In this document: positions 1-24,200 of the stretch, one piece after another
How the letters are laid out: each line of letters begins with the position of its first letter
Position numbering within the stretch: position 1 is the stretch's first letter
From: Stramenopiles sp. TOSAG23-6
Taxonomy: Eukaryota
Assembly: GCA_900128565.1 (NCBI GenBank)
Contig: LT635941.1
Location: forward strand, 1 to 36,546
Direction: 5' to 3'
Length of the DNA: 36,546 bases
The notes under the pieces: generated by a model
Databases searched by the model: none
Seen by the model: only the letters and a program-made list of their open reading frames with translations
Told to the model about the DNA's origin: nothing
Position numbers and translations under genes: made by a program

Positions 1-3000
1 TTTCTTGGGTTTTGTCGGAGCATTCACCAGTACCATAACAACCTTCAACGGCAACACATACAGCAACAGCTGCAATATTTTGATGTATTTTTATATTTGC
101 CTTGACACTTGTAATAACGCAGTAATGGTGAAATGGTGAATCGCAAGGATAAATTTCACCTTCCTCGCAGTAAAACCCAACAGGACATTCAATTCGTTCA
201 CTACTTCCTTCAGGACATATGTAATTTTTACCAGTTACAACATCTGTGCCCGAACAATTTTTGCGTCCCTTTCGTCGTTCGCAATAATACCCCTCCGGGC
301 ATATCTCAGTAGTCTTTGCCTTGGGACAGAAAAATCCGGCTGGACAATGTTCTGGAACTAGTGAGCCTTCTACACAAAAGTGCTTGTATTCTTTATTTTC
401 TAATCTTACGTCGCCAATATTTAAAGACCAGTCACAAGATTTCGATTCTGCAGGGGTGTAGCAATAATTCCCAACAGGACATATGCTAGACTTTCTTGAT
501 CCTTCAGGACACCATTGGCATGTCTTCGGAGATGAGTCTGCACAAAATCTATCGATATCACATCGTACTTTCAGATCCGAAGTTTCACAATAAAATCCAG
601 CTTCGCATACTTCGGGGACAGCATTTCCTCCCATACACGAAAGAGACTTTTCTTCTGCGCCCCACGTAGCAGCAACATTCCACTTACATGGCTGAACGCA
701 TTGGGCTTCATTGGTAATCGAATTACAAGCATCACTTCCTAGGCATTGACTATGACATTTAGCGACAGTATCCCGTTCATCTGTTACATCATTCCCATCC
801 TGTGTCAAACACCTTCCTCTCTGGGAAGTAGGATGCAACGTCTCTATCCAAGCACCAGACCAAGTACATGTCTCTTCTCTTTCAGCATAACCCATTCGCT
901 TGTGAGTACACTGTGACAGCTTCTCTACTTCGTGTATATGATATTTACCTTCAATATTTTCGACGCATAAGGTATCGTGATCCGTCCATGTTCCAACCTC
1001 GCCTGTAGTATCATCAGATACCGTACACGATGTCCTTGTTTTATCAGGCAACAATCTACTACGAGCAGAAAACCACGTACAAACATCGCCAGTGCAATCA
1101 CTTTCGGACTTATCAATACAATCATCGGGACCATAGCAACCTTCTGATGCTACACAAACGGGTCCATGCCAAGTACCAACTTGGCCAGTAGTACTATTTT
1201 CAGTTTCACACGAAGATAAATTATTAAGGTCCAACACAACAGAAGCATCATTTACCCAATTACATTCCGACCATAAGCATTTATTTGACACACAAGTACT
1301 AGACGAAGCAATACCAGTACAACATGCATCTGATTTGACCCAAACATTAATGTCACTATGTTTTAAACTACTAGCTGACCATAATTTGCATTCACTGATT
1401 AAAATATTGAGACCCCGATTCTGTATTTGAGTAGTGTCACTTTTACCAAAAAGGGAAACCCCAAGATATGTGCCGTTCACACTAAATTTAATATAAAACA
1501 GCTCACTTGATTGAGGAATCGATAATGATTTACCCTGTATCGCACCTTCGGTTAGCCCTGCGACATAAATATTCCCAGCCGAATCTTCCGTTGCGGTGTA
1601 GGCATTAACGTTAGCATTGTCGTCAGATACAATCTCTTTGATGAACTTTTGTTTACCCGTCGAACTATCACAGCTAATCAATAGTAAATCAGTATTTCCT
1701 TTATCATTTACTCGAGAACCTACAATTATAACATCATTTGATACCGAAGAAACATATAATGCTGCCGCCGTCGTAGCAGTCCCTGGTTTACCAAATAATG
1801 TTGTGTTTAGTATTGTCCCAGTCCCACTCATTTTTATTAAAAATGCATCTTGTGTACCGGTAATGTTGACTTCATTAAGTGTGCCGTCAGGCGTTTTTAA
1901 TGTGTTTCCAACCACCCAAATATTTCCTTTACTATCTGCAAAAAGTGCAGTTACTGTGCCATTCGTAATGTTTAAGTCCTTCTCAAATATTTCCACTAAA
2001 CTCGTACCAGTTTGAAATGAAATCAGATAACTCGTAGACTTTTTATAGACACTATTTTTGTAGTCAGCCTCTTCAAACGTATTTACTAGAACATACACCT
2101 TGCCATCAGTAGCAATGATATCGACGGGTTCGACAAGCCACACAGGTTTGTCAAATTCAAAGCATTTTTTAGTGGGTTTATCGATATTTAAATGGACAAT
2201 ACACCCGTTCGCACCGGGTTCATCTATTTTTCCTTCCTTTAACAATGCAAATATTTTCCCGGATATTGGTTGCAAAGCAAGGCCAAATGGAGTATAATAT
2301 ACGCCAGTTTCCCCAATCAATGTTTCAGACTGTAACTCGCCGTCTAAATTAAATTTCACTACTAGTAAATCAGCCTTACCAGTTAAAGCAATGTCATTGA
2401 TTGTTGACTCGGAATTGCCCAAAACCCAAACATGAGATGAATCGGTTACAATTCCGTAGCTACTAGTAGACTTTGGTAAATCTTGAGGTGTATATTTCTT
2501 CTCGATGAAAGATTTCGATGGATCTTTTGGACCACACGAAATGTTACATGTTTCCTCCCCTGATTTCCAAGCACAATCTTTTGTTTCTTCATTGTCATCT
2601 GCATCAAAATTTTCACACTCTNTTTGGCGTGTTTTCCCAATACAAGCATCTTTAAATCCACCATTACCATCAGATTCACAGCCAATAGTAGTACCAGTTG
2701 CACATGTAATTCCTGATGTTCGGACGCATCTTGGCACAGATAAATTACAATTACCTGTGCCAAAGCAACCTTCTTTGCTTACACATACATCCAAATCAGA
2801 AATATTTTTGCCGCCTATTACACATGCGTGATGATATGGTGGATCACAAGGGTATACATCTTTTCCATTTTGACAGTAGAATCCTACTGGGCATTCTTTT
2901 GGTGATCCTGTACCCTCGGGGCAGTACCACCCAACATCAGATGTTTCTTCGGTTGGAGGTACATATGTAGCACAGCTTCCAGGAACGGTCCCTTTGGGAC

Positions 3001-6000
3001 AGTACATACCTTCTGGGCATGGGTCTATTCGTATGCCGTTGCTACACATCTTCCCAAGAGGACAATCATCAGGTGATGAACTACCTTCAAGACATATATA
3101 TGATTTATCACCTCCTGCTCCTTGCATACATGGAATTTTGGTAGAAGGATCCGGACAGAAATAACCAAGAGGACAAAGAGTTCTAAACTTGGTCCCGGTA
3201 GGACAATACGAAGCTTTGCCGTCAATGTCGAGACATTTAATTTGAGTTTTTGATGTGTTACATTCGGATCCCTCTTCGCAATCTTGAGGACTAGACATAC
3301 CTGCTTCAGAATTACAGTAGTACCCATAATCGTCCGATTCACACGAATGAACATGTAAACCTTTTGTACAATAAGATCCTGCTGGACATGCTATAGGCGC
3401 ATTATTTTTTCCTGGACAATACCAAACATAATCCCTGCCTCTGAGAACAGTAACTGTAGGGACTCTGCTAGGGTCCCAAACACACGATATCGCTTCATCA
3501 GAGGACTCACAGAAGTGTCCAGCAGGGCATTCTTGCGGGTTCTTTGATCCTCTGGGACAATACGATCCGTCATTTTTACAGTATACTTCTTCTGTGCTAT
3601 TTGGTGAATAATTAGACATTGACGAAACACTAGGAGTGCCCGAGCCTTCGGGACAGTACAAAGTAAGTTCCTCTTGAGACCATATACCCATAATTGGGTT
3701 CCATTGGCATCCTTCCTCTGACTTTGACTCACAATTTGTTTGATCATATTGATGGCATCCATCTTTTCCTGTACAGTGATTTTCGCAATCTAATGGATTC
3801 TTTCTTTCTGCAGTTACATCAAGGTTGCCGAATTTTGTGATACATTTACCTCTAGGCCTATTTGGATGAGTATGAGATTTCCACGAACCATCCCAATGAC
3901 ACGTTTCTCCTGTATTTGCAAGCCCAACATACAAACTATTTCCGTCGCAGGATGTTGAATCTACTACTGGAATTACTTTGGAGTGTGATGCTGTTGTTGA
4001 GACACATTTATTTTGGGAATCATTACAACCCTCCGTGTAACTTACATCTGTACAACATACTCTATGTGAAAACCTAACAAGTCTCGCATTAGTTGAATCA
4101 CTATAAATATTTGCCCAATAAATACGACATCGTGTGTAGACAATTCCCAATCCCATATTTGCTCGACCAGCTTCGTTAAGTAGCGGATAATTAGTCGATA
4201 TTGGTCTCAAATACGGATTCTCGCCATTGTTATCAAATTCAGCTAATTGCATACTCACGCTATCATCAGTCTTGGTCTGTACTGCTACGTAAATGTTATT
4301 AAATTCGTCGGCAACCATATCTAATGTTTTTATGAGCATTAAACTGCCTAAATTCAAAGTAAAATTACAATCTTTTGTTTCTGCATTACCATCTGCATCA
4401 ACATCTTCACATTCACTTTGTGTAAATTTCCCAACACAAGCATCTCTAAATCCACCAGAATTATCAGATTCACACCCTGTAGTAGTATCATTTGTACATG
4501 TTACAGTCGAAGCTTGAAAACACTCAACTTCCTTGTGAATTACTTCTTCAGTCATATTTCCACTATCGTCAAATTGTAAGAGTAATGCTCTCCGAGTAGT
4601 AGAGCCAGTGATTATGTTTTCCTTAAAGCCTGCAACCCAAATTCGTTCAATGGAATCAACAATTATAGAAGTTCCAACAGTTAAAGATAAAGGAATGGCA
4701 ACAATTTCAGTGAAAACGATATCTCCATTGCTCTGAATTTTTCTGAGAAAAAGACTTTGTTGGCCAGTTTTTGGGTCAATTGTGTGACCTGTGAGGTATA
4801 AATCCCCAGACGAGTCAATAGCAAAATCCTTGACACTTCCAAAACCACTAAAGATTTTTCTTTTTGTAGGGTTTGTATCTGTATCAGAAGGTTGGAATTC
4901 AACAAGCCAAGATTCCTGGTGATTCCAAAGACCGTACTTTTCAACAGTGATAAGTGTATAATATTTAGTTTTGCTAAAATTGGACAAAACTCCAATCGGA
5001 ATAGTTTTATAGCCCTTGCCAAAATTATCGAAATTTAAAGTTTTTGTACCTGTATGTGCACCATCCGAAGAGAATTGCAATAAAGATATCGGATGTTCAT
5101 CATAGTCAATATTTCCTTCTACGACAGCAACTATTACACCCCCGTCACCAGTAATGGCAAAACCACCAACATTGTAGGACTTTCCAGAGATACCCCACTG
5201 ATATGTAACAGTTTCGCTTTCACTGGCAATCTTTTGAAGCAAAATATCACGAATCCCTGTGAATCCATCATTTTCCCATGTACAATCCGATGTTTCTGTA
5301 TTATTATCTGCATCAAAATCTACACATTCACTTTGCGTTAATTTCCCGATACAAGCATCTCTAAACCCACCACTACCATCAGACTCGCATCCTGCAGTAC
5401 TGCCATCTGTGCATGTTACGGATGATGTTTGAGAACAGATAATTCCCTTTTCTGCGATGACCCAAACGACTCCATCTTTGTTTACATTTACCATAGCACC
5501 GGTAATATTCGTTGAACCTTCACCAAATACATGTCTATCCGTATCTTCTTCGGAAGTTCTATCTGTAAGGCTGCAGGATTGTATCGTGCTTGTTTCAGCA
5601 CAAATAGTTGATCCTTCCAATGAAATCCCTTTCAAAACACCAATTTTGTTGTTATTATTCTCATCATGAGTAGCGCATAGCGTTTCATCGCTATGACCTG
5701 TAATTTCGGTAACAGTTTCAACCCATTCACATCCTGTATCTCTACATTTATCGGCGGTATCTTGCAATTTACATGTATCATAACTTACAGTGATTATATA
5801 ATCACATTTCGCGTTTTGAAAACACGTTGTGGCATCTAAATTAGGACATTCAGAATAAGAACTAACACACTTTTTGTCATCTGTTAGCCATGTACACTCT
5901 GAATTTGATGTACACCCAGATATGTCTAGCCCACTACAATCAGATACTGCGCTTAGTTTACACTGACCTGTTGTATAACAGCCCCTTTTAATGATACACA

Positions 6001-9000
6001 TTTCGTTTTCTTCCCATGTTCCTACCAAGCCTGTTTCAGCTGTTGGTGTTATACAAGAAATTTCAGACGTTCTCGTATTTAATATTTTATTGCTACTGAT
6101 CCAGAGACACCCATCACCACACTCATTGCACCCACTTTGACACGAACTCTTAGTTTTAAGCGCATTACACGCGGCATTATTATAACATCCTTCAACAGCA
6201 CGACACACAGGGCCATACCAATTGATATTTATATCAGGAGAGCCGGTGGGGTAATCGAAACAATTTTTCACATCCTGTGCTGAAACAGAATAAGGTTTGG
6301 TTACACCATTATCAAGTATACAAGATGACCCTTGCCATGTACTTGTCCATATTCCTACTTTGCCATTGGTAGAATCATGTTTTATACATGATTCTTCAGT
6401 TAAACGAGACGTTAAAATATATGAGTTTCCAACTATCCATTCACAATTGCTAGTGTCATTGCATACCGAATCTACATCTGTATTACATCTACCTGTCCCA
6501 TAACAACCTTCTCTAGCAATACAAACATGGCCGTGCCAACTACCATATTCAAAAGTTGTTTCATCAGGTTCGCGGCAAGACTTGAAGTTTGTACGATCCG
6601 CCAGAAGCTTTTCGCCTTTATTAATCCAATTACAATTGGTAGAATCATCACACTCTTGCTTTGAACTATTATCAGTACAATCTTTACTTCCAAAGCAACC
6701 ATCCACACTAACACATGAAGCAACTTGAGCAATGTTTTTATTGTTTACAAGACATGCATGATGATACGGGGCATCACAAGGATACTTTGAATGGCCAAAT
6801 TCACAGTAGAATCCAGGAGGGCATTTACCTCTTTTGGCGCTTCCAGCTGGACAATAATCACCATTTCTATCGCATTGATGATTTTCAGTTTCACCAATGT
6901 CATCACAAAAATATCCCACAGGACAAGTGTGACACTGTGGAAGTTGATAATCAGATGTATTGTAACTCCCGGGAGAACAACTTTCACAAGAACCACCATC
7001 TTTTAAATATTTACCTGGGCCACACAAATTAGCTACTACAGGTTCACTCCAAGCTCCCCAGTCAATTTCAAAATCACCATTGCTTGCTCTAACCCTTACC
7101 CTGTATTCTTCACTGTCGTCAACAGGATAAAGCCGAAAGAATCTGTCACCAGAACTACATCCAGAGATGTCCATGATTTTATCATCACTACCTTTGTTGC
7201 CATCGTCGTTCTCCCCCGGAGCGTATACTCTAAATGCTTTTGTAACAAAGTCAATATTAGTGTTAACATCGAAGCCAATTTTTGATATCTTTCGTCCACC
7301 ATTTGCGGGACACGTAAACATTATAATAAGGGCTTCGCTTGAAGCACCTGTGGGTAAACGTACATCCCAACACTTCACATCACCCCCACAAGGAAATAAT
7401 CGGAAGTTTTTACCTACGCGTTTCATAGAAGTTGCAAAAGCTCCATCAGCAGAATTTGGTCCCTGAAACATTTGAACAATTTCTGGTGGACTAATATTCT
7501 GTATCTTTAAAGAGCTATACATGTCTGCAGATTTTCCAACGGAATTTGATGCTTGTACACGTAACATGAGATCCATATTTGGCTCATCGACAGACATATT
7601 ACTCAGCACGGCAAGCTTAAGTGACCCTGGGGTACCATATAAAACCCAACCGGGTGCATTCCAGTCACAGTTCCCACCACAGTCTGTCTTTCCCTTCTGA
7701 AGACATGTCTCATAAGAAGTTTTGACACAAAATGACTCTGTTTTATGTGGATCACGTACCCAGCTACAATCTTCATCGCCGTTACAAGAACTTTCGACAG
7801 TAATTTTGTCGCAATCGGTTACTATCGGCCTACAATATGCTTTGTTGCCCCACCCACAGTCCTCGTTTGCATCACAAGTATCTTTATCATGCTCAAAACA
7901 TTTTAGGTCATTTGATATGGCATGACATGCTTCGTATATAAATTGAAATTGGTATCTCATTTTCTCAGAATCGATGTCAATACCTTCAATAACTGGAACT
8001 CTTGCCACAATTGTACCATTCATAGATACAACTTGAATTGGTTTTGCATCGATACCATCTAACCAATATGGCTTTGTAATCTTTAGACACTGGCCTGGTA
8101 AAGATACTCTATATGTTGTATATATATCATGGTCAGTTAATGATGCCCATTCTTCTGTAGTTGCGTCCACAAATACATTCCTTGGTTTTTCAGCATATAA
8201 CTCTTCTAAACTCGAAATTGCAAACCCAATACCCGATTGAAATGTAATCTCCCCTTCCCACGAGCATTTTTCTGCCTTACTTCGCTCCGAGTTATCTAAA
8301 CAAACTGATGATGTATCGTGTTGTTCACAACCGCTACTTCCCGTTTCTATGTTTTTACAACTTATTTGTGTTGCTTCCTGAATTTTTCCAATTTCGTCAC
8401 CATTCGAATTATACACAGAATCATTTTGCTGAAAAGGTTGTGATATATCACCAGAAATTTTGATGACTGTATCATCAATTTCATATGCTTCAAGAACGCG
8501 CAAACGCTCACTGACTTTTCCAAAGTATACATTGTTTGGTGTAAATAAACTCATACCTGGAATAAACTTTTTCCATACAGGATCCATCCACGTACCATCT
8601 GAGTCTTTACACTGACTTTCCCAGCTGGAAGACGTGCCTTCACTTTCCACTGTATCGGACACATCGTGGGTCCCGTACATGCAGGAAGGAAACTTCAATA
8701 TGTTTTTTCCATTCTGGATGATTTTATTGAAGGTATTTCCTGGTAGTTTATATATTAATCGTTTATACAGTTCAATTAAATTTGGAAGTTCTTCCAAGGT
8801 TCCAGGAGCAAGAAAAGTAAGATTTGCTTCCCACGAACAAGCATCATTTCTTCGACAATCAATGAATGTTTTGTGCTTTGCACATTGGGGGGGGGTCTCT
8901 TTATCCTTACAAGCTAATTCTTCTACGCCAGTCAGTTTTCCTATTAAAGTTCCATCAGCTTTGTATACAGTGTCGCCTGGTTTAAATGAGTGGGGAATTG

Positions 9001-9123
9001 CACCACCAGATACCCTGATTATTGCTGTTTCCTTATTGTATGTGTTAATAACATGTAATGTAGAGTCACCGCCACATACATCGCATTCACTTTGTGTATT
9101 TGCAACACCGCCAGGAACAATGC
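1..9123 (-). CDS. Gene B exon 2, 3'-partial (~3,040 codons): PRC-like motifs, FN3-like domains, Cys super-repeats, two SBBP-like propellers, CPxGxYC repeats
   Basis: Absent from the ORF track, consistent with a frame that has no stop before the window edge. Manual translation near 9120, 7051, 4318, 2428 and 4 gives the same frame as exon 1. The peptides match gene A (CIVPGGVANTQSECDVCGGDSTLHVI vs CTVPGKVAKKQIECDVCGGDTTLYVI; NIAAVAVCVAVEGCYGTGECSDKTQE identical). Confidence 0.88.
1340..2490 (-). other. SBBP-like beta-propeller 2 (gene B), counterpart of the gene A propeller
   Basis: GIVTDSSHVWVLGNSESTINDIALTGKADLLVVKFNLDG...; DSAGNIYVAGLTEGAIQG. Confidence 0.62.
4050..5270 (-). other. SBBP-like beta-propeller 1 (gene B only)
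   Basis: Cys-poor island with FAIDSSGDLYLTG, IIVDSIERIWVAG and MVADEFNNIYVA blades. Confidence 0.55.
7040..8070 (-). other. Two fibronectin type III-like domains (gene B)
   Basis: Manual translation gives LRVQASNSVGKSA and CPANGGRKISKIGFDV...RVRASNGDFEIDWGAWSEP, collinear with gene A. Confidence 0.62.
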
Positions 9124-9213
9124 ATGTATTTTGGAAAAATATTTAACAAAAAATAGTTAGGTACAACATTTCGTACGAAAAAAAATCAAATTTGAAAAAA
9201 AAATAAAACATAC
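9124..9213 (-). other. Putative 90-nt intron with non-canonical 3' end (GT...AT)
   Basis: Minus strand: GAAAAAT|GTATGTTTT...GTACCTAACT...CCAAAATACAT|GCATTGTT. It is T-rich and contains the in-frame TAA at 9143-9145. Removal restores EKCIVPG, collinear with uninterrupted DKCTVPG in gene A. Confidence 0.72.
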
Positions 9214-12200
9214 ATTTTTCTGGTATAAACGACGCGACTTCCTTTTCACCCTTGACCAAAGGCACATTTTTGTATACTGGATCACTCCAATGACAATTAC
9301 TCTTTAGACATGAACTTTCTGTCGTCAAAGAACTACATACTTTTACTTCTACTACATGTTTATCCCAGGTACCCCCTGAATCAGTACAATCTTTTTCATT
9401 GTCCACTTCATCGGATACATCATTGCCCCCGTACACACAGTAAGAAGCCGTACCACCAATGCAGCCCCCAGCATCACTGTAGCATACGTTGTAGTTGGTA
9501 ATCGCATCAAATCCTGAAGATAAGTGAAACTCAACAAAACCATGATTTAAATGTGTGACTAATAACGGAAATGGACCTGCTACAAAGTCAGTTGCAGTCT
9601 CACAAACTTCTTTGGTAATTACAATCAATGGCATTACTACCCACGCCCCATGATGTGGACTATCGCGAACAATATCTTCTAATTCAAAAGATAAGATTGT
9701 CTTTTCTTCATCTTCATTATTACGGATCGTACCATTATATGATACCACTTTGGGATTTTCAATACACATAGTTGCACCCGAACCACCTGTATACTGCCCC
9801 TCTTGGCATACTTTACAAGTCGATTTCGTATTCGCAAAAGCTGTTGATGGTAGTTCAGCACCTGGGCCTGTGGCACCTGGGTCAGGAAAGTATTTACCTA
9901 CTTCGCAATCTATACAATCACCAACCTCATCGTGATCAATTGCACGAACAATTGAGTTATCTGGAATTCTGATGTACTTTCCAGCCACACAACTTATACA
10001 AGATACCGATCCTGTCATATCCTGATACTTTCCAGGGTCGCATACTATACAACTGAAAGGAGCCCGATCGGTGTATGTGGCTAAATTCTGTGGTACAGGA
10101 CTATGTTTACCTTTTGCACAGACATGACATGTTCCTTCGCCTTCATTACTATACTTCCCCGCTTCACAGAGGATACAATCTCCTGGGGCATCGTGATTTT
10201 TATTGTACACTTCCCATTTACAAATGAATGCACGCCCCGAATACCGCCCATCCTTCCATATTCCAATTTTACCATTGTCATCCTCATCGGGTGCTTCACA
10301 CAATTCTTTTGTTTCACGAGTCAGTTTCTCCTCATTTACCCATGTACAGCCACTATCGCTTGATTCGCCACACGTAATTTCGTCGTCTATATCTCTACAT
10401 TGAACTGAACCGTAACATCCTTGTACACACATACACTCAGGAAGAGGGAAAGTCTCACTAATACACTTTGCTTTTGTGGAAATTGCGCTACAAGTATCGC
10501 CATCGTTACTATCTACTGCTGTACATGCTGGAGGAGTAGAAGGTAGATAGCTTCCAGCGGGGCACGATATACAATTAGATTCTTTCACTTGCCCGTCAGA
10601 ATCATTCCATTTACCCGTGGCACAAATTTTACAATCAGAAATATGATCATGCTCACTTTCACGTCCATCAGCAACACCTCCAGGAGCATCAAGATATTGA
10701 CCAGCAGGACAGTTCAGGCAACGATCTTCGTCTCTGACATTCATATCAGTTATGGCCCAAAATTTACCGGGGACACAAACAATACAATCCTCCACCTGAT
10801 TATGCAATGACGGTGTAACGTCATCAATAATGTATGAACCTGCTGGACAGTGTTTGCACCTTGCTGATGATTTCACACCATTGGGTTCATCGCTGTATTT
10901 TCCTGGGGGGCAAGTATTGCAAGAATTTATACTTATTTGGCCTATTTTTTCTTGATAAGTTCCACCTGGGCAGTTATAACAATCGCTTTCATGATCATGC
11001 TTACTTGTAGTATCATAACTTGTCAAGGGATTTAGTAAACCAGCTTCATCATTATATTTCCCCATGGGGCATTTTTCACATTCCGTGGCTCCAAGAGTAT
11101 CAGAATATCTCCCAATTTGACAAACAAGACATTTGCCAAGAGAGCTATGCGCATCAGATTTATCGCTGATACTCGCTGAGGCATCGGCACTGGCAAGAAA
11201 TCTACCTTTTATACACAATATACAATCTTTTACGGGATCTCCTTGACCCTTCAAAGGATTATATCTCCCACCAGGGCAAGGTTCACAGTCCCTTATATTG
11301 TCGTGGTCAGAAGGATTTCCCTGAGTTCTTACTGTCCCAGCGGGACACATAATACAAGAGGTAGCCCCCTTTATATCTACGTATTGACCTTCACTACAAG
11401 CTGCACAATCCATTATAGGATTTGAAGAATATTCGCCCATTTTACAGATATCGCATGTAGTAGCACCTATGCCTGTTCCGGTCATTGATCCAACGGGACA
11501 GACAAAACAAGAAGTTGGAAGATTGGGTTGGCCTTCAAAAGTGTATTTTCCAGGTCCACACTTTTCACATCTATCAGATCCTTCGTTCTCTGAAAATGAT
11601 CCGGGCTCACACTTTACACAGACATTATTATCATTGTGTTCCTTTTTTCCTGCCTCACAAGGCAAGCATTTGGTAGCGTCACCTGGTGGCGTGATATATC
11701 CTTCACGACAAGCTTTACAAGAAGATGCCCCCATGGTTTCAATAAATTTCCCATAAGGACAATTGATACAACTTGTTTCATTACGTTCAGAACCAATATA
11801 TTTTCCTACTTCACAGGGAGAACATGAACCACTCGCGTATTCCGTCGAGGTAGAAAATACGTCAGGTACAAAAAAGTTTCCTTTGGGGCACATTTCACAT
11901 AATGTATTTGTTGTTCGAGTGCCTAGAGTAATTACACAGTTGTCTTCGGAAGGTATAGTATGCGGCAGACATTCACCGAGACCGCTTTCTGGAGTATAGT
12001 AACCAGTGGCACATAATTTACACGCGCTATCAACGTAACTCCTATTTTTGAAACGAATAAGAACTTTTCCGTGGCCATCATGATCGCTCGGATGTTGAAT
12101 ATGATCAATGTATTTAATTTTTCGAAGGTCATCTTCGCTATTATCTGTGAGATTTGTGGCAATGAAACTTGTCCCCCCTTTACCTCCTCTATTATCAGTA

Positions 12201-15200
12201 ATGTACATCGTGTCTGGACTATTTTCACCAGAGTATCCAAAGTCTCCACCAATCCAACCACCTCCACCACCACCAGCATTTTTGCCGCCGTTACCACCAC
12301 CACCAAATCCACCCCATGCAAATGTGACACTACCACCGGCAGCACCTTCATCTATTGATTTGCCACCTCCTGCCGGAAGATTTGATTGATCTAATATATT
12401 TACATTATACACCGTAGTACCTGTCGACACTATCGAACATGTACCCCCCAAGCATGATGAATATTTTTGGTGCCAAATACAAGACGCCGCATAGCACATT
12501 TGAACATTTGTAGCTTTGCTACAATTTCCTGAATTCTCCAACGGATTATTAGTACACACAATATTGGGATCAAAATCAATTTTCATTCCCCATGTACAAT
12601 CCGAGGAGCCACACACTTTATCTCGAAGACATTCAGATGCCTTATACTCATAGACTTCTGAATCCATATTTGTCATACTATAGCACGCAGAATTGGAACT
12701 GATGGAAACCACTTCTCCTAAAAATCCTCCATGCTCGCTGTATACCCGATCCCCTTGTTTCCAAGACACGTATGGGGGTTCTGAAGCTGGTGCAGGTGCA
12801 GGAGTTTTTACAATAACTGATGGCATTCCAGTGTTTGTGTATGATATTGTATTAAATCCTTTTGGGAATTCATCAATAGCCTTGGCCCCATAACCAACTT
12901 CAGAAAACCCTGAACCACCAGCGCCTCCATTCGGTACAATTTCTTTTCTGCCATCAGCCATATTTAATTGAAGATCTGCACCAAAGCCACCCAATAACTT
13001 ATATAGTGGTTTATATTGACAGTTTCCACCCTTTGTAACTTTCACAATCGAGATAGGACCAGTTGCTTTCCATATACCCGTGCCAGTTTCTCGATTGACT
13101 GTCGTACACGAAGAATCTGGTGTTCGGGNATTCCATACCATGCCACGACAACCACCGCAAGTGACGGGACATGCTTGCATAGTAGTCTGAGCTGGATCTG
13201 ACCAAATGACGTCATCGGTGTTGCAATTTTCTACCGATTGTGCACAATACATTTGATCGTTGCTTTTATCTTCGCGATCTTTGCAAAGTGATGACTCGTG
13301 GTGATGGTGTGGACCTATGATCCACTCACAAGTTTCAACTTCCTCACACGTAGCCTTAGTCTCATATTTACCTTTGCACACGGAAACAGCCTCTTTCCAT
13401 ATACAACCTTTTGAAGTCAAATCATTACACGAAATTCTATCTTTTCCCGTACAGTAAAAGCACTTATTATCATTCACTGTATTNTCACAATCGCAAAATG
13501 CAGGCTCTTCGGGAGGGGATCCAACACCGTTGTGGTAACAACCTTGGTCAATGATACATTCTCCAAAGTCAACCCATATCCCCATTTCATAAGTAGTTGA
13601 GTTTACCCCTTCGCATGATGCTCGCGAATATTTTTCATGAAGTGATTTTGTATTGGCAGGTACCCAACTACAATTAAGGTTATCCTCATTGTGACATGTC
13701 TCTTCATCAGTTACACCACTACAATTTTCGAAACTATCATAACCACTGTCCATATTTCCAATGCACCCTTCTGCAGATATACAAACACCCGAATACCACG
13801 TACGANTTTTACCAGTTCCAGAATTGTTCTCACATGCGTCCATAAGGATTTCAGTTTCGGCTTTAATCCATTTACAATCGGTAGTATTTTCACATGTAAA
13901 TACGTTGTTAATATCAGCACAATTTCCAGTTCCGTAGCAACCTTCAGTTGTAACACATATAGGATTAGGACTCGAAGCATTACACTCAATTAAAATTTGA
14001 GCTTCAGGCATTTCTTCACAGCAGTTTTCTTCGCCTTCTACGCATTCGAATACAATATTTCCTGCAACATAACCATCACCCGCATTTATTATTTCAACAT
14101 TCTCCAAGACTTGATTTCTCATACGAGTTTTTCCTCCTCCTCCAACAGAGGTATTATACCCAGAGTAATGTGATGCAACACCTTCTGAATTGACACCACC
14201 ATTACCTCCTTCAGGTCCATTATTTGGATTTGCATAGTTGACCAAGTATAACACGGCATGTTCTTTCAAAGGAAGAATATCCCAAGAACACGAATCAGCA
14301 TTTTTACACTCTTGTTCGCTGTCTTCATATGTGCTACATTCTGCTGCGTCACCAACACAAGACATTTTATTATCCATTTCAATCTTTGCATAAAACAGAC
14401 AATTATCATGGTAATTGCAGTCATCTTTATCTAGCTTCTCGCAGTCACTTTCCGACGCAGTATTAATACCATGACAACGTGCAATCTGTTTGGCTGTCAC
14501 TCTACGAGAATCGCCTTCTTCTGTATACAGATTGTTGCCAATCTGAATGGCTCTCCAGAGGGTATCGTATTTTGTTTCATTCCATTCTCCTCCGACATCC
14601 CACCCTGATACCATAATATATGGAGGTGTACTTTTTTGTATTTTCCATCCTTCAGCTTGACCGTGACCATAACCACTACCACCAGCACCACCAGCAATAA
14701 GCAAAATATTCTTTTCTGATACTTTCTTTGGATTTTTGTCACTGCCGAGAAACACAAAAGTTCCACCAGAACCTCCACCGGAATATGTTGCGCGAGTGTC
14801 ACCCATGTTGGAAGAAGTTCCAATTGTACCCATCTGTCCTACTAAAATAAAAATCTTGGTACCTCTGGTGAGCTTAAAGTGACCTTCAACGTGTCCACCA
14901 TTTCCTTTAACTCTTGGCACATTGCGCGGACATGTGTAAGTTTTGTCAACCCCATTCATATTTGTTCTACATTCAGTCCAAACATCCCCTGCACCATATG
15001 CTTCAATTATATATTCAGCAGTAGCTGGAACAGTCCATACTTGGTAACCTGGAATTGGAACATCATAAAAGTATTTCTTGCGAATCCAATGTCCTGGGGG
15101 CAGATTTTCTTTTAAAATATATCCATCCGCTTGGGCAAGACAATCGTCTTCTGAGGGACCTTCGAATCCTGTTTTACCGCAATTATGAAATATATGTCCA

Positions 15201-17260
15201 GAAAACTCGTATAGATCAGCTGGTTCACCATTGCCGGAACGATAGGATCCTTTTGCACAAGTTCTGCATGTCGTCTTTGCCAATGTAACTTCGTTTGTCT
15301 CTGAATTCAATGTTGTATCATAACCAAACCCCCCTGAAGAAAATCCATATTTATCGGCACAAGAGCAACTGTATCCTCCAACATGGTTGATACACTCACT
15401 ATATTCTATATCGCTGTTTGCGTCCGACTTCAACTTACCAAGGCATGGATCCGGATCAGCTTCACAATATTTCTTCAGAACACAAGTTTCATTCTGAAGT
15501 TCGTAACCAGTAACGCAATTACAAGTGTAATCTTCCGCGCCTGTTTGTTCACACACGCCACCAACGCCACAATCTTTATTAAGACATAAATTTTGTGTGA
15601 TACATGGGTTCGGAAGAGTAGAAATTATATTTGGCCCTCCTATAATACCTACCACACCACAAACACAAGTATTGGTCGTATTTGAACACGTTCCTCCTCC
15701 TATACCACACATGCACTCATCAGGAGTCTTGCAAGAATCACTACCCCACCAATTACCAATTTTAAGTTCGTATTTTTTTTCACAAAAGGATTTGTTTAAT
15801 ACACATGGTCCCCCAATTAGACCTCCTTGAAAACCTGTTGGACAGGTGCAAAAATAATCTCCAGTAGAGGGAGTGCAACCATCACTTGTTTTTGAGCAAC
15901 AATTCGCATCCTTGTTCAAGTTTAGACCAATGTTGATAATTTTTGCTGTGCACATTTGTCTAGCAGTATCTCCACAAGGTATACTTGCACAAACATCATC
16001 TTCTATGCACTCATTTTGACCTTCATCGTTAACTTTACCAGAGTATCCTTCAGCACACTCACCACAATTGATTCCTTTGTATCCCTGAACACAAGTACAT
16101 TTGTATGTTGACTTCACATCACTACATTTACCGTGACCACTACAATTTTGTTCCGTTGGAAATTTGCAATTATCAATATTTTCACATGCTGAGTAGCAAT
16201 CCTTTACACATACATCGTCTTGCGATAAATCAGAGCAACCCGCTCCACATGCTTTGCCTTGGTCCTTACCGACATGACAACTAAGAAGATTAACACCACA
16301 AAATTGTCTTGCACCGGATAAACGAGGGAAAATCGCCGCACCATCCCCATGAGTACAAGGAAATTCCGTTGTGTACTCATCACTATCAATAGGACAATTT
16401 GTGGCTTCATAATCAAGACACATACTTGGATTTTCATCAACATTTTCTTCAACCTCAGTATTCCCAAAAATCCGAAAATCTGTGAGATAACGTAAATCTG
16501 CGACTACAGGTGGAATTCGACCATCAATGTGATTACCTTCTAATGAAAGTGTGATTATGTGTGTCAGCAGCGATATAGTATCAGGAACCCGGCCAACGAA
16601 TGAATTGCAACCCAAGTAAACGTGTTTTAGTTGTGCAATCTGCCCAAGCTCAGGTGGTATCTTACCACCAATACCTCCTCTTGGTCGATCTTCATCAGCA
16701 TCCGATCTCTTACAATTACTAATATTTATCGAAGTCAATCTCGTTAGATTTTTCACATTCGCATCAATAGCCCCTTTTAAATTGACGCCGTTTCTTCCTA
16801 AATTGAGATTTGTCAAAAATTCAATGTTATAGAAAGTACTTGGTATAGAACCATTGAGATTATTGCCCCACTTGTTTATTTGGGATGCGGCGTTACAATC
16901 ATCTTGTCCAACACAGTTACTGTAAGTTCCACTTAAATTAATTTTTGTTATGCGTAACTCATCGAGGTCAACTTTTAGACCTGATTCCCCACAACCAGCT
17001 ACATTTCTACAAAGCATACAAGTTATGCCATATGCGGGTATACACTCGTCCAAAGTTTCAGTGTCTAGTGAATCTATGTTTGTACAGCATATATTATTGT
17101 CGTCAATATTCCAACCAAATTTATTTTCCCAAGAATCTCCTCCTGTAGAATTATAAAGTTCATCTACACTTTCTCTATCATAGATATTGGTGTTATGACC
17201 AGCATTTACGACAAGCAAAATGCGCAAAAGAACAATGGAAAGTATCTTCATATAATACAT
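9214..17260 (-). CDS. Gene B exon 1: N-terminal ~2,680 aa of the paralogous giant protein (signal peptide, LRR, EGF, split ALK/LTK-like Gly-rich domain, GCC2/GCC3 repeats)
   Basis: 2705-aa ORF starting MYYMKILSIVLLRILLVVNAG. It is collinear with gene A up to ASFIPEKC (gene A: ASVIPDKC), after which the ORF runs into a T-rich intron-like sequence. Confidence 0.9.
9765..12025 (-). repeat. GCC2/GCC3 (ephrin-receptor-like/TNFR-like) CxxCxxGxY repeats, gene B
   Basis: Dozens of C..C..G[KTR][YF] units, many followed by HD...DC. Confidence 0.85.
12050..15200 (-). other. ALK/LTK-like glycine-rich domain, interrupted by long Cys-rich inserts (gene B)
   Basis: FHNCGKTGFEGPS..C, GYQVWTVPATAEYIIEAYGAG, GHFKLTRGTKIFILVGQMG, GGGSGGTFVF, LLIAGGAGG, then ~770 aa later GGFGGGGNGGKNAGGGGGGWIGG...GGKGGTSFI...HDGHGKVLI. 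The motif order matches the ALK/LTK ectodomain. Confidence 0.8.
13140..13290 (-). other. ShKT-like six-cysteine module (gene B)
   Basis: CKDREDK...YCAQSVENC...TTMQACPVTCGGC has the CxD start and MxxCPxTCGxC end typical of ShK domains. Confidence 0.6.
15350..16170 (-). other. EGF-like repeats (gene B)
   Basis: CSGHGKC...YKCTCVQGYKGINC, YFCTCPTGFQG, CGVGGVC...YTCNCVTGY, CINHVGGYSCSC. Confidence 0.8.
16460..17190 (-). other. LRR N-cap plus plant/RLK-type leucine-rich repeats (gene B)
   Basis: DRESVDELYNSTGGDSWENKFGW cap. Repeats include NNLNGSIPSTFYNIEFLTNLNLGRN, GKIPPELGQIAQLKHVYLGCNSFVGRVPDTISLLTHIITLSLEGNHIDGRIPP. Confidence 0.85.
17198..17260 (-). other. Signal peptide of gene B
   Basis: MYYMKILSIVLLRILLVVNA|G: basic residue, hydrophobic core and a V-x-A cleavage-like site. 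Confidence 0.7.
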
Positions 17261-17652
17261 TTCTCTACTATTATGGTTATATTACCGGTAGTTTAACTAA
17301 ATTTTGTGAAAAAACGGTTTCTACAAAGGCGGTGTGTCTCGTTCCAAAATATCAAGATGTGGACAATCTTTAGGTATAAAATTTCGTACCATTTTTGAGT
17401 TTGTAACGGTCAGTTTTTTTGGTTTCAAAAATTTTGATAAAAAATCTCCGATACGTACTATCATCCGAAGATCTGTCTCATCTATCTACAGATCTGATTA
17501 CGATTACAATTGCGACGGTGGATAGCTAATATTAGATAGTTGCCGCTACTGCAGTAGCAGTAGAATGTAAATGTATTGAATTAGCGTCAGCATGGATTAT
17601 TATATGTCAGACAATAATAAGTGTAATACAATGAGAGATGTAAATTATTTGT

Positions 17653-17822: not shown

Positions 17823-17840
17823 GACGTAGAGAGAGACAAA

Positions 17841-18004
17841 GAGAGAGAGAGCGAAGAAGAACAAGAAAACGGATAGATACAAGGAACGAATATATATTAT
17901 ATAGGCAAACGCAAAATAAGATTGAGAGAGAGAGAGCGAAGAAGAACAAGAAAACGGATAGATACAAGGAACGAATACATATTATATAGGCAAACGCAAA
18001 ATAA
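17841..18004. repeat. Intergenic direct repeat: 2 x ~79 bp, period 85 bp, each copy starting with (GA)n
   Basis: GAGAGAGAGAGCGAAGAAGAACAAGAAAACGGATAGATACAAGGAACGAATA[T/C]ATATTATATAGGCAAACGCAAAATAA at 17841-17919 and 17926-18004, one mismatch. Confidence 0.95.
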
Positions 18005-18109: not shown

Positions 18110-18204
18110 TAAGTATTTTATACTATTACGCTATTTTATTATTTTACGCTCAAATTATAAGAAATTATTTTATACTATTTTATTATTTTACCCTGAAATT
18201 ATAA
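18110..18204 (-). terminator. AT-rich 3' UTR of gene A with AATAAA-type signals in a 44-bp-period duplication
   Basis: CTATTTTATTATTTTAC.CT.AAATTATAA at 18131-18160 and 18175-18204; each copy contains AATAAA on the minus strand. Confidence 0.4.
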
Positions 18205-21200
18205 TATTTGTTCATCAGGGCCATTTTCATTCCCATCAGAAGATGATGAGCTGCCAGACGAAGACGAACCTGAATCTGAAGAATCTGATTTCATACTTTT
18301 TCGCTTTTCTTCAATCAATTTGCGTTCTTCTTCATGACGTTTTAACCTTTTCAAATTCTCTTCATGTTCGTGCAATTTTTGCTGCAAGTTTGTTAAAGAC
18401 GGTCTGTTATTCCACTTTGCTGCTAATTTATTCAAAAACGCCCTTTGTTTCGGACCATACGTCATACGTATTGGTGGAAATTTGTTGATAATAGTTATGG
18501 CGCCTTGAAACATACACCATGAAAGTAAACCAATAAGAGCGTACCCAACATTATCATTTTCGTGAGCTCGAACAAATGCATTGCCTTCGAGTAACAAGAA
18601 CGCATAAAATGACATACACACAGTGAAAAGTAGCACAAGTTGTAGTGCGAAATCTCCGGTGAAGCGATAAGGTTTTACAACTGCAGTGATGCCTAGGAAG
18701 AAACAAGACACGACCACAGCAACTGCAGCTCTTGGAATACCTTTGGGTAGCGCAGCAAGCATACCTGTCATCATTGCCTTCCGCATCATTTCTATGAACT
18801 CATACCACCAAATACCATGCCTATAACTTAAGAAAAGTGAGCCATATTGTTGAGTGAGACGATAATGTTGCTCACGAAGCTCGGGTTGCGACATCATAGC
18901 ATCGTACATTTCATCCCCCATTTCATCCTCAGGAATCAGCCACATTCGCCGACGTCGCAAAAGAAAGAAACCAAACAATGGGATACCAATGACGTATGTC
19001 CCAACACCAGCACATGCTGTCCAATATAGACGGTTGTAACCCTCATCATCACATCTAACTGCCAAATCAGCCATCAAATATGATCGACCATTCACTTCCA
19101 TACAATTAAATACACGAAAACATTTAACAGAAAGACCAGGATACAAACAAAATATTACAAGAAGCAAAATTCGTGTACCATTCATCTTAATACTTTGATA
19201 AGTAAATTTAGCCCGCTTTCCACAACATTTGCGGATTAGATTTGCAGTTTGCAATGCAAAGAACAAAACAATCGTGAAAACAGGAACAAATGAAAAATGA
19301 CCGTAGAATTTCGTAGCATAATCTGTACTGAATGTACAAGGTTCAAGCCAAGTTGCAAACGTTGCCATATCAAAGTTAACGAGATCCAAAGTATCACAAA
19401 AGCTGATAAATTTTCTTGGCATTTTCTCTCCAGTTGTTCGTTTCAGCTGTGACATGACTTGCATGAAACTTGCACAAATTTTTATTGTTGCAATCCATTC
19501 TTGAAACATTTGTGCTTTGCGATCCTTCTTGTCATCGTGAGAATGTAAACGCTTGCGTTTCTTGAGATCTTTATGAGCTGCTCTTCCACCAGGTCTCGTA
19601 GCAGCTCTATGTAGTTTTCTCATCAGTTTATCCTGTCCTTTCCTTGTTATTACTTGAGATTTTAGTGTTTGCACTTTTTCTAATGCTTTAGTAGCGCGGC
19701 GTTTAACTGTCATAATTTTTTCCACATCTTGTACAGAATACTCTGTAGTTTCTGTCATTGCATGTTGCATTCGAGACAGCAGTAGAGCTCTCCTTGACGC
19801 ATTTTTCATTTTGCGTTTCATTCGTTTCATTTTTTGTGCAAATTCATCATGATAATACCCTTGATCAGGTTTTGACATTACAAATATCACTGTAAAAACA
19901 TAAGCCAGAAATCCAACAATTCCAAGAAGTAGATACATGGCATCTTTATTACCTTTGCTATCTAAATGTTCTTTTCCTTCGCATTTTTCACAGTGAACCC
20001 CATCAGCTTGTAACACATATCCTTTTTTACATATAGCACACATAATCCCTTCATGACCTTTCCTGCAATTTTGCCAATTTGTTTCGTACATTTCACCAGT
20101 TTCTGTATTGTTACGCAACGCCCCAGCTTCGCATACTTGTGGTGCGAAACAACGTCGGAGGGTACATTCAACAAATGTTCTTGAAGAAGATTCCGGGTCT
20201 GGGGCTACAGTGGGGTAGCATGCGCATTTATTACAAGGATCATCATTGCAGCTAGATGTGATATCTTTTGCACAAAAGTAATCTGGGTGTAACTTTAGAA
20301 GTTCTGGGTCTTGCCAATAACCAAACTCAGGTAAGTCACTTCGAGGGCCTAGCGGATATTTACCTTCTGATAAAAATGCTTCCTTTTCTGTATCGTCCAT
20401 TTCGTCCATAGGACAATCGTATAACCATGTTGTACCCTCAATTTTAGATTCAGATCCCAAAGCATGATACTTACATTTTCGCTTGCAAATCCCATTTTCA
20501 TCCTCACAAGGGGTAATGTGAATACGTCGAATTGCTTCTCTGGTTTGTAATGCTACACCAGGTCGATCACATTTTGCCCCTCTAGGGCAGGGTAAACATT
20601 TCTGTGACCATGTATCTGTTCCCATTAATATCTCGACAGGCAATGATTCCATCGTGAGAATATCCATCGCATTGCAATTATGTTCTTCTGCAAACGAGCG
20701 GCTTCCATGGGTAACACCTACTGGTCTCTTCCCTCCGCAATCGTCTCCAAATTCAAAGTACTTTGAGTTGAAATATTTCAATGTATATTTGAGCTGAAAC
20801 TCTTCCGTAGAAGGACATGCATCTGGATTTTCAAGAGATTTACCCTGGCATTCTCCATCAGGAGCCCAATATATATTGTTTCCTCCTAGATGCGCATAAT
20901 AGTTTGCTGGACATTCGCATCGGTCACGGACCCCACCGATAACATCACCTGTAACCAACTTGATATCACCCCATCTAGGACATGCTAACGGAGTTATTTG
21001 TCCAGAATCGCAAAACTCTTGCTCTTGACATGCAGTTTTCATTGCTGGGTTCATACAGTAATATCCTTTGGGACACATACTTGATGTATACCACCCACCA
21101 CGGATGATCTTTTTGGTTACGACTGCAGGATTGACTTTCGGTCCACAAAATACTCCAATTCCTTCACAAAGAGTCTCTTCCACTGAAGTTTCACAAAAGT

Positions 21201-24200
21201 ATCCCGCAGGGCACAAATGAGCAGAGTGACTGCCTTGAGTACATCGGTATGAGGTACCGTGATGAACTCCTCCCTTATCAACTATAGGATCAACTGTATC
21301 ATATTTTTCGTCAGACCAAGCCGCAAATTCTGTAGATTCGCATTCTTCCTTGGTTTCTATTGCCTCATAAAATGTACCAAGAGGTACACGATTTTCTGCT
21401 GCAGGATCCCAGACTTTCATAAAGCATTCATCTTTCGTTCTTGGATTTGATCTCGACTTTGACTGCCATGTACCAACAAGTGTACACTCATCTTTTGAAC
21501 GTCGTGGGAGATGTGATATTTCCGTCAACGGATCTATGCATTTCTCAGTCCCGTCTAATGTAACCCAAATACCTTTTGCTACACAGTTATCCTTATTGTC
21601 GCGAGAAGTCACTACTAAATTCTCGGAAATAGCATCTTCAAAATGCACTTCGGATTTAAATACGTATCTCGTGTTTCCATCAATACGGAACGGAAGATCT
21701 GATGCCGCCGTGGCTGGTAACCCGTCTACGTCGACGCCATATCTTCGACCAAATGGTTTGTAATTCATAACTGTTAAACCTGCAGGGAAAAAACAATATC
21801 CTAATGATGTGAGAACTTTATCCTTATCATTTTCGTTTATGCATGTATCAATGTCGACATTCACTGCTCGCTCATTCTTTGTGCCAAGCATACAGCCATG
21901 AAATGGATAGTCACAGGAATATTTACTCATGCCATTTTCACAATAATACCCCTCGGGGCACTTTTGGGGGTCTATTGAGCCCTCTTCACAGTACCACGAT
22001 TCTTCTTTTCCCTTTGAATGATCCGGATTATTTTCATCGTATGCACAAATCCGAGGGAAATTATCTGCATCATTTGCATCAAACACGCAACTCTGTGGGA
22101 AAAATCCTTCACAGCAGTAATAACCCGCCGTACAGATTTGATTCCTCACAGACGCTGAACATTCTCTCCCTGCAGGGCACGGTAGAGGGGTAACAGAACC
22201 TTCTAAGCATAACCAAGAATGTTTCTCTGATTTTAAATTATTATCTTGAGATTCATTGTCCCAAATACAAGAAAACTTAGTCGATGAAGTAGGACAATAA
22301 TACCCGGCTGGACAAAAAGATTTATTGGTAGTTCCTTCCGGGCAATACCATCCAGTATCATCACACTTTTCACGAGTGGCTGAATTTGGACATTCGTACC
22401 CTAGCGGACAATAGATAGGGACACTCGAGCCATAATCACAATAAAACGTATTGCATTTTGAATTTGCCTTACATTTGTCAAGCGTCATCCATTCGTTGGT
22501 ACTTCTGGCTTCAATACATTCAGCCTCTGTTTTATATTCTAGTTTATTATACGCATTACCTGAACCTAATGGGTTTACACACCTTTCATCACAAGAAAAA
22601 GCATAAATCTCTTCCTCACAGTAATATCCTTTTGGGCACAAGTTACTGCGGATACTCCCTTTTAAACAGAGTTGGGCTTTGTTTGACGATGTCTTGCAGC
22701 TTTTGGGTAACTCTCCTTGAGGGCAATAGAAGCCAGCTTCACAAGGGATTCTACCAGTCTCCCACGTTCCAAATTTACCATCATCCTGGCCATCAGACGT
22801 TTCACACAATTCTTTTGTATCACGAGGAAGTTCCTCCGAACGAGGATTTACCCATGTACAATCATTTATACACTTATCTTTAGTATTTATATCTCTACAT
22901 GCATCAGGACCATAACAACCTTCTACACAAATGCATACAGGTGAGTGGGGATTTTGCCCATCCCATGCTGCACAGTTCCATCCTTCTTCACACTGAAGCT
23001 CAGCATAGGTTCCCGTAGGGCAAAATTCACTTGATATGAAACCTGTGTCTGATTCAGCTCTTACCTTGGCCGTGCCTACTGTGCCTGAACCAGATACCCA
23101 ATTACACCTTTCTTTTGGTCTGTAGGACTTGGAACATCGATACATCGCATCACATTTTCTCTGGAGTCGAGTGCCTTCAGGACAGTAAAATCCATCGTCA
23201 CACTCAACAGCTTCCTCTGCATCCTCGCAGTAGTGACCTTTTGGACAGAAGGATTGCACTGCTGAGCCAATAGTACACAGTTTTGCCGATCCATCTTCCA
23301 CATAGTTATTAATGATTTCTTTCAGTGCTGTATTTGCTTCAACTTCAGTGTCGTATCTTTTTATGAACTGCGATTGTCCATCTTTGTCTTTGTATAAATC
23401 CCATATTTGGCTTCCTTCAGAATGATCTATGTGATTTCCGTCACAAAAACGTGTTTCCAGATTTGTTCCAAAATAATTGCAAAACGAACCAGCAGGACAA
23501 GGTTTCTCTTCCGTAGAACCTTCTGGGCACTCCTTGCCTATACCACACAATTTTGGGTGCTGCCCAAGAGCACAATAATAACTTTTGGGGCAATCTGTAA
23601 TATTCCATGCATCATTACAAACAACTCCAGCAGGGCATGCACTTCGTAACATTGTACCAGTTGGACAATACCATGAAAATGTTTTATCCTGTAACACCGA
23701 GTCCTGGGTTTTGTCGTCCCACATACAACTCATTTGAGAAGTTCTCGTAGAATTGCAATAGTAACCTTCTAAACATATTGATATCTCTTTTGATCCAACT
23801 GGACAATAGAAAGACTCATTTTCTGATTTAATACCTAGGCAATCAGTGGGCGTTGCTGACGTGGGACAAACAAAGCCAATTGGGCAAATCCTTAATTCTT
23901 TACTCAATGCTTCGCATATATAACCTTTATCTATATCCATTCCGTTGTCATACCATGTTCCAACTACTCCATTGGACGATGCTTTGCATTCGACTTCTGT
24001 TGACCGTTTGTTGTGCCAAATATGACCTTCACAATTACCCTCTTTAATCACCCCTGGCACACGTTCTCCCGTTGTTTGATTTAAGCAGATGCCTTCTTTA
24101 AATACATCATATCCTTCAACTGTGCAACTAATGTCACATGCATACTTGTGTATGCCATCAGGACAGTAGTATCCTTCAGGACAGTCCAGTGGCTTGTAAT

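Follow-up and report, generated by a model that had tools for sequence, protein, structure and literature searches.

A family of predicted GT-AT introns with introner-like properties and a matching U1 variant in a stramenopile genome

How can a gene be expressed if it is interrupted by an insert that begins like an intron but does not end like one? Few signals in eukaryotic genes are as conserved as the 3′ AG. In the window considered here, namely the whole 36,546-nucleotide (nt) contig LT635941.1 (assembly GCA_900128565.1) of Stramenopiles sp. TOSAG23-6, a gene for a giant cysteine-rich protein (gene B) is split on the minus strand by a 90-nt insert with a GT donor and a branch-point-like motif but an AT at its end, while its paralog (gene A) has no insert at the equivalent site. 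We conclude with good, though not full, confidence that the insert, one copy of a genome-wide introner family, is excised as a GT-AT intron by the major spliceosome. Judged from sequence comparisons, the best reading is that the U2 spliceosome of this organism does not need an AG. The features of the locus are as follows, with a slash marking the boundary between exon and intron here and below.

9124..9213, minus strand: predicted GT-AT intron of 90 nt, a member copy of the genome-wide family (identity to other copies 94% at most, with a median of 78% across 217 copies)
9214..9215, minus strand: exonic AT preceding the donor and echoed as the final two bases of the intron, a putative 2-nt target-site duplication; the empty site of the paralog has one AT
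9206..9216, minus strand: 5′ splice site AAT/GTATGTTT, which pairs with the variant U1 5′ end (9.5 of 11 pairs, a wobble counting as half)
9156..9165, minus strand: putative branch-point motif TGTACCTAAC, its presumptive branch A being 9157 (34 nt before the intron end)
9124..9135, minus strand: conserved 3′ end CCAAAATACAT with the acceptor dinucleotide AT; AG is absent past the branch motif
9143..9145, minus strand: in-frame TAA; intron retention would cut the protein to about half its length
9171..9182, minus strand: palindrome TTTCGTACGAAA, frequent in the family, with no excess folding
9214..17260 (start approximate), minus strand: exon 1 of gene B, whose product is a large Cys-rich protein bearing ephrin-receptor-like repeats and one EGF-like domain
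2..9123, minus strand: exon 2 of gene B, open as far as the contig end
18202..36450, minus strand: paralog A, a single 6,083-codon frame with its empty site near 32420

On the minus strand the locus reads GAAAAAT/GTATGT, then TGTACCTAAC, then CCAAAATACAT/GC. The stop-free frames 17281-9146 and 9142-2 are in phase, with only a single TAA (9145-9143) between them; excision of 9213-9124, as in the GT-AT reading, fuses the two open reading frames (ORFs) and regains colinearity with the paralog, the join giving PEKCIVPGG where the uninterrupted paralog has PDKCTVPGK. The spliced mRNA of gene B would thereby carry the junction GAAAAATGCATT and be 90 nt shorter. Between the branch motif and the end of the insert there is not a single AG. 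Downstream, the nearest one (9090, +34 nt) does not keep the frame; the first ones that do lie at +99 and +147 nt, and their use would remove the block CIVPGG..ECDVCGG common to the paralog. The original prediction, which was made from these letters, had described the GTATGT donor, the CCTAAC branch-like motif, the T-rich body, the in-frame TAA, the missing AG acceptor, the out-of-frame AG, the inverted ends ATGTAT and ATACAT, the two internal palindromes and the lack of an insert in gene A; all of these are indeed present, with a single AT at the empty site near 32420. Its term 'paralog-specific' is apt for the site but not for the element, which is found throughout the genome.

Is the AT an accident of this copy? 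A similarity search of the genome returned about 1,940 candidates, and dozens among the 40 that were scored are 86-93% identical to the insert; the strict pattern GTATG..CCTAAC..AAATACAT had 1,277 genome matches as against 0 for the reversed control. In the 21-Mb assembly, 2,383 family matches end in ATACAT and 125 in ATACAG. When the ends following a fixed 19-nt anchor were tallied (n=3,262), AT accounted for 2,736 (84%), A[ACG] for 185 and [CGT]N for 341, and the first 100 listed ends of A plus a base other than T comprised 35 AG, 38 AC and 27 AA. These counts are somewhat inflated because the assembly contains near-identical duplicate contigs (C13/C14, C1146/C6122 and C2432-C2440 of G000), while copies that mismatch the patterns escape them. 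An earlier, unenriched set held 118 GT-AT and 6 GT-AG introns among 151 copies, with 97 put aside; a later set of 233 called copies, with 208 candidates dropped as unresolved, over-represents AG ends since its contigs were chosen from the AG list. The genome search and the dinucleotide survey that had been proposed thus yield thousands of copies with AT as their usual end.

The original prediction had also considered a miscalled base, or a CAG>CAT mutation, at 9124 in what would otherwise be a canonical GT-AG intron, and these counts bear directly on that possibility. The 125 ATACAG copies are compatible with it, and base 9124 has no independent coverage on a unique flank: in the independent seawater DNA run X3 the donor half and its flank are present (9191-11000, 3 differences), but that base is not confirmed. 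However, since AT is the normal end of the family, a one-off mutation or miscall is ruled out as a general explanation, and with 2,383 copies ending in AT and AT-ending family pieces also occurring in X3, we consider its probability at this copy negligible.

The family has a distinctive architecture. Its donor consensus is CAT/GTAYGTTT, with +5 G and +6 T invariant in the called copies (partly set by the anchor); intron positions -4/-3 are AC in 97%/93% of copies, again partly by the anchor. On the exon side, T stands at -1 in 91%, C and A at -3 in 68 of 213 and 27%, respectively, and G and T at +1 in 51% and 20%. A conserved CTAAC branch core lies 23-57 nt from the intron end, with two upstream positions unpaired with U2, and TACCTAAC is present at 178 of the 213 low-GC CTRAC sites in the fetched loci. 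Several further observations concern these copies. Many contigs start or stop inside a copy, for which reason the family probably fragments the assembly. Telomere-like AACCCT repeats are found inside some diverged copies (minus strand of L041, 730-750, and several ATACAG matches). Some copies are head-to-tail, nested or internally duplicated (L083, minus strand, 137-242; L041, plus strand, 7451-7630; L020, minus strand, 1835-1990), one of them starting directly behind the terminal AT of another, and some of these may be spliced in two steps. In viral sequences, 0 of the 120 pattern matches among those listed had the family architecture.

We then ask if the copies behave as introns. GT-first excision leaves an open frame in 179 of 232 tested copies, and retention would be harmless in only 20 of 178; relative to the coding direction, 179 copies are sense, 3 marginally antisense and 51 unclear. 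The branch motif is present in 58 of 80 short gaps separating coding blocks, and among the other 22, judged by eye, 9 resemble family copies and none an unrelated GT-AG intron. The family seems to constitute nearly all introns seen in this genome. For example, a GAPDH gene (L103) carries three copies, and its GT-first joins are gap-free against 114 homologs and recover the D-x-R-R (113, 114 and 114 of the 114 homologs) and G-x-E motifs. The public model P0122 loses invariant GAPDH residues through the use of AG; of the three introns it predicts only the GT-AG one correctly and gets the two GT-AT ones wrong. As the public models P0122 and P0394 are wrong at family introns, the predicted proteome of the organism is unreliable.

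The nearest non-self matches of this GAPDH (minus strand of L103, G000:C2023, ~3700-5125), which adjoins a membrane-transporter-like ORF, are bacterial ArsJ-associated GAPDHs with 50-55% identity; it was probably acquired by horizontal transfer and later gained three family introns. A PDB search with a GAPDH exon gave no match, and an ESM Atlas search no usable one.

Which bases does the spliceosome join? Because AT is duplicated at the two junctions, GT-AT, TG-CA and AT-AC cuts yield the same mRNA here, and the original prediction had left GT-AT and AT-AC undecided. The small nuclear RNAs (snRNAs) speak to this point. The sole U1 snRNA found (full-length, E 3e-13) has the 5′ end AAACGUACAUG in place of the consensus AUACUUACCUG; it differs at three positions, 2 opposite donor +7 (T), 5 opposite donor +4 (C/T) and 9 opposite exon -1 (T, 91%), and all three changes pair with the family donor. 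Mean U1 pairing in the GT register is 9.86 of 11, as against 5.86 or less in five other registers. U6 ACAGAGA, U2 GUAGUA and U5 loop 1 are all standard. With regard to a canonical second U1, a 12-mer search allowing one mismatch gave 58 matches versus 68 for controls, and none of the 5 matches inspected, including all 3 exact ones, is a U1. The U5, U2, U1 and U4 genes lie head to tail on one strand within 640 base pairs (bp), with spacers of 2-23 nt (L035:9-645, G000:C1146, with U1 at C1146:349-508; duplicate C6122), and the U6 gene sits on a separate contig; no U5-U2 tandem was found in the metagenome collection.

A second line comes from asymmetric copies, in which the alternative cuts give different residues. 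In an MFS transporter copy the junction G, present in 108 of 117 homologs, is retained only in the GT-first or +1 register; in a myotubularin copy the GT-first register gives D (36 of 117 homologs) and the alternative Y (0 of 117); and in an asymmetric GAPDH copy the D of the AT-AC register is not one of the six residues that the column lists for 114 homologs. Asymmetric copies of this kind are found at L042 +3379 (G000:C19, GG/GC..AT), L099 +1064 (C1948, AG/AT..AT) and in L103 (C2023, AT/GT..AG). The MFS and myotubularin copies end in AT but start with GC and AT, and so fix the register of the family rather than the GT base itself. Taken together, we favour a GT-first register, fixed by the U1 match, with which the conserved residues at the three asymmetric copies agree.

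The competing proposal is that the same intron is cut two bases earlier (AT-AC) or one earlier (TG-CA), by a U12 spliceosome or as a U2-type AT-AC intron. In its favour, the junction is identical wherever AT is duplicated, the AC at -4/-3 is conserved to the extent given above, and A-C terminal pairs are isosteric with G-G, according to a study of the tunicate Fritillaria (PMC13326754). In the shifted registers, however, U1 pairing drops to 4.76 (shift -2) and 2.71 (shift -1) of 11, the +5 G for U6 is missing, and the conserved residues change (MFS G to M or V; myotubularin D to Y; GAPDH Y to D), with the AT-AC register creating stops in two copies. The U12-type donor motif is RTATCC, from which the family donor GTAYGTTT departs. 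U12 and U6atac had no match at E<=1 in the assembly, which is incomplete; U11 and U4atac were not searched. We accordingly hold a shifted cut to be very improbable. As for the phase of the introns, a test of register based on it (exon -2 mismatches in 11 of 44 phase 1 introns and in 10 of 84 and 7 of 50 of the others) was weak and was not used.

Could the insert be removed without a spliceosome, by DNA excision, by structure-guided joining as in the nonconventional introns of euglenids, or could its AT be edited to AG in RNA? The inverted ends ATGTAT/ATACAT can pair over 6 bp, and the last two bases of the family vary beyond what a canonical acceptor would. Yet the folding of the insert is no better than that of shuffled sequence (z -0.33; 69 of 200 shuffles equally good), run X3 contains the insert in DNA (donor half with flank), and the CTAAC motif, the T-rich tract and the complementarity to U1 and U6 indicate a spliceosome. 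Such routes are therefore most improbable.

Where the U2 spliceosome acts, it would cut ahead of GT, guided by the altered U1, which pairs with CAU/GUAYGUUU, and by the unchanged U6 ACAGAGA. Ligation would follow after AT, the acceptor seemingly being set by the conserved ..AATAC end and the distance from the branch point instead of by AG. Among the non-AT ends AG is no more frequent than AC, a sign that the acceptor may have been relaxed rather than made specific to AT. On the protein side, the compared region of PRP8 is close to human, its 1585-loop is that of 120 homologs save one K/R difference, and a linker segment, RKHFRQYIQYRTDPFWW, departs from most homologs, which vary there too. PRP8 (L061:3086-9151, G000:C84) is a 2,021-codon frame without a family intron, its last part isolated by an N-containing break. 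Slu7 is present. In the same incomplete assembly, two motif searches and a zf-CCCH scan (16 matches, 11 loci inspected) did not reveal U2AF1, and SF1-HH gave no match, its control likewise giving none; these results do not imply absence.

How did the family spread? A short non-autonomous element with GTAY...ATAC ends is envisaged to insert after a 2-nt target, mostly AT, which it duplicates. The element would supply the GT donor and the branch motif, and the duplicated target the last two bases of the intron, with the consequence that excision would restore the exon exactly. Of the 21 copies ending in neither AT nor AG, 11 repeat the last two bases of the exon, where 1.0 is expected, and the ends covary with the exon for GT/GT (p 8e-7) and AC/AC (p 7e-7). 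The match between exon and intron ends declines with divergence, from 60 of 66 in the youngest third through 53 of 62 in the middle to 31 of 56 in the oldest; being high in young copies and decaying thereafter, it points to a 2-nt target-site duplication followed by drift. The family further displays the marks of introners: many similar copies at unrelated sites, an empty paralogous site and, with exceptions, a target-derived splice site. The two possibilities that had been voiced as alternatives, a non-canonical intron and a recent gain resembling an introner or a miniature inverted-repeat transposable element, turn out to be one and the same, supported by at least 2,383 GT..AT copies, the 4-bp terminal inverted repeat and the age-dependent duplication.

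We place a DNA transposon first as the mode of spreading. A different route, through RNA (reverse splicing followed by reverse transcription) or a recombinase with a 2-nt core, with the exonic AT as a proto-splice site read by U1, is unlikely. The copies lie nearly all in the sense direction within coding sequence, which would also follow from selection. The terminal inverted repeat is just 4 bp long, perfect in 144 of 213 copies and never longer; +4 is C in 52 of 213 copies, unmatched by a compensating change at the other end; and in some near-consensus copies the intron ends in AT but the preceding exon does not. A search for an autonomous partner, limited to DDE_Tnp_4, gave 5 matches at 2 distinct loci, none with the ends of the family. 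On the other hand, reverse splicing does not predict that rare ends copy the exon (GT/GT, AC/AC, AG/AG), and the decay of the match with divergence also argues against this route. In the course of the transposase search we observed a Harbinger-like pair (L122:3-2769, G000:C2432; identical in C2433, C2439 and C2440), in which a 508-codon Plant_tran/DDE_Tnp_4 frame is convergent with a 350-codon ORF that has no Pfam match (YqaJ itself was not searched). A short family-like piece including the branch motif lies between the two ORFs (~1055-1100).

Several observations weigh against the intron reading or its transposon origin. As to the latter, they comprise the shortness of the inverted repeat, the lack of a partner in the DDE_Tnp_4 search, 6 of 66 young copies that break the duplication and a TT/TT covariation that is not significant (p 0.26). 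With regard to splicing, the U1 score (54.1 bits) is below the Rfam cut-off of 69.5, the GT-first Y of GAPDH is also outside the six residues listed for its column, 53 of the 232 copies are not open within the 150-nt test window, and, given the match of the PRP8 1585-loop to its homologs, no acceptor-side change has been identified. Of 164 AT-ending copies, 54 have an AG between the branch motif and the end, and 63 an in-frame AG at most 30 nt downstream, so that individual copies may use an AG. In the polyA run X10 there are short pieces of family 3′ ends, which implies that unspliced copies or DNA are present in it. Finally, base 9124 has no unique-flank coverage in X3, and no RNA contig bridges 9124-9215 in runs X6, X7 and X10: the contigs over 7500-11000 end at 9106 and 9116 and restart at 9232. 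As for the proposed RNA check across 9050-9300, both exons are covered by RNA contigs but no contig in those runs spans the junction; runs in which word shares were small were left aside.

The unseen RNA join, together with the intact paralog and the in-frame AG at +99, would fit retention of this copy, with gene B disrupted, truncated or rescued by that AG. Against this, exon 2 is open over 3,047 codons, RNA contigs lie on both sides of the insert, use of the +99 AG would cost 33 residues that are conserved in the paralog, and thousands of genes, including those for GAPDH and myotubularin, would be broken likewise. We thus judge retention quite improbable and maintain the GT-AT intron as the preferred explanation.

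A bolder extension, which we advance only tentatively and at somewhat less than even chances, is that one transposon replaced essentially all introns of the lineage and that its major spliceosome was rewired: U1 would read both the donor of the element and the AT that it targets, the acceptor would no longer be checked for AG, possibly with the loss of U2AF1 and SF1, the AATAC end would set the 3′ cut, and nearly any dinucleotide (AT, TT, GT, AC, AA, AG) would be accepted. If so, any sense insertion after AT would be a ready-made intron, a feedback that would let the element spread at little cost.

The host itself is called a MAST-3-type stramenopile. In a tree of PRP8 it groups with oomycetes and Tribonema (support 0.987), nested with a cluster holding Incisomonas marina (0.936 and 0.827), and two public gene models with identical exons bear the MAST-3 label of their source. 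None of 77 PRP8 loci examined has the family motif, and a crude slide test of 167 inserts at PRP8 loci gave 135 GT-AG, 11 GC-AG, 11 GT-AT only, 3 AT-AC only and 7 none. The single PRP8 locus near Incisomonas has an unbroken PRP8.

In the window itself, the two giant tandem Cys-rich paralogs (18202-36450 and 2-17281) comprise ~6,080 codons and no fewer than 5,700, respectively, and the intron at 9124..9213 is the only family copy seen. Positions 1-81 match 24999-25079 at 98.8%, well over the usual paralog identity (gene conversion or an assembly artefact), and an 80-nt tandem duplication (17840-18004) lies between the two genes.

With respect to known systems, in the literature searched, with subscription papers and supplements outside the search, we found no description of GT-AT-dominated introns in a stramenopile, nor of a system that combines AT acceptors as the norm with GT donors, a single family and a U1 altered at an exon-pairing position; the words 'splic' and 'canonical' are absent from the accessible text of two single-cell papers on MAST (PMC5778133; bioRxiv 10.64898/2026.04.17.719054). 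Introners of Micromonas and others form thousands of similar short introns, recently gained at unrelated sites, with one splice site from the element and the other from the target-site duplication (PMC11282704; PMC12130899). Those described co-opt an AG from the duplication, and a survey lists AG or AC as 3′ sites, whereas the site co-opted here is AT. In the marine protist Amoebophrya most introns are non-canonical and repeated, with target-site duplications and terminal inverted repeats (PMC11282704; PMC7789003); there, however, the duplications vary from 3 to 5 nt and U1 is apparently absent, while here U1 is present and altered. The ISL2EU elements of the PHIS superfamily also duplicate a 2-nt AT, in the target A/AT/T (PMC4482050), from which the family departs with its exon -3 A of 27% and +1 G of 51% and T of 20%. 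An ISL2EU element would also have a YqaJ ORF beside its transposase, where the L122 pair has an ORF with no Pfam match. Mammals splice rare GT-AT introns, 7 of U12 type and one conserved U2-type intron in DGCR2 (PMC1557818), a handful per genome as compared with a majority class without U12 signals here. As distinct from the nonconventional introns of euglenids, the insert has no stable end-joining structure and a strong U1 match.

In Entamoeba and Mastigamoeba, the U1 5′ end is altered to fit an atypical donor consensus (bioRxiv 10.1101/2022.06.08.495308), though a 2026 review still treats the U1 of Entamoeba as absent (PMC13292270). The accessible text on these amoebae describes changed donors without mention of AT acceptors or an introner family; in the present case one U1 change pairs with an exonic T at -1, a base that the duplication also places at the acceptor. 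In this genome, the GT-AT family and the U1 matched to its donor suggest a splicing machinery reshaped around one invading element.

The closest parallel is the tunicate Fritillaria. F. borealis and F. pellucida have transposon-derived U2 introns with terminal inverted repeats and target-site duplications, the acceptor coming from the duplicated target (PMC13326754; PMC11282704). Their introns end most often in AT (34% and 44%), with a YAY triplet ahead of the donor that recurs at the acceptor; many classes coexist, donors are mostly AG, the U12 system is lost, the U2, U5 and U6 motifs are unchanged and the U1 5′ end shows strict conservation (PMC13326754). The two systems thus share a probable transposon origin, a target-derived acceptor, AT as the commonest end and standard U2, U5 and U6. 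They differ in that the stramenopile has a GT donor, one dominant family, AT at 84% of anchored ends, a 2-nt duplication (C occupies exon -3 in only 68 of 213 copies) and three U1 changes. U2AF is duplicated in Fritillaria; U2AF1 was not found here by the searches described. As one host is a tunicate and the other a stramenopile, the two probably arose independently. A free-living protist in which GT-AT is the main intron class and U1 is altered at an exon-pairing position would test the need for AG recognition by U2AF1 and for the pairing of the first and last intron bases, and would show how spliceosomes and invading elements co-evolve, in a uniform family that is simpler than that of Fritillaria.

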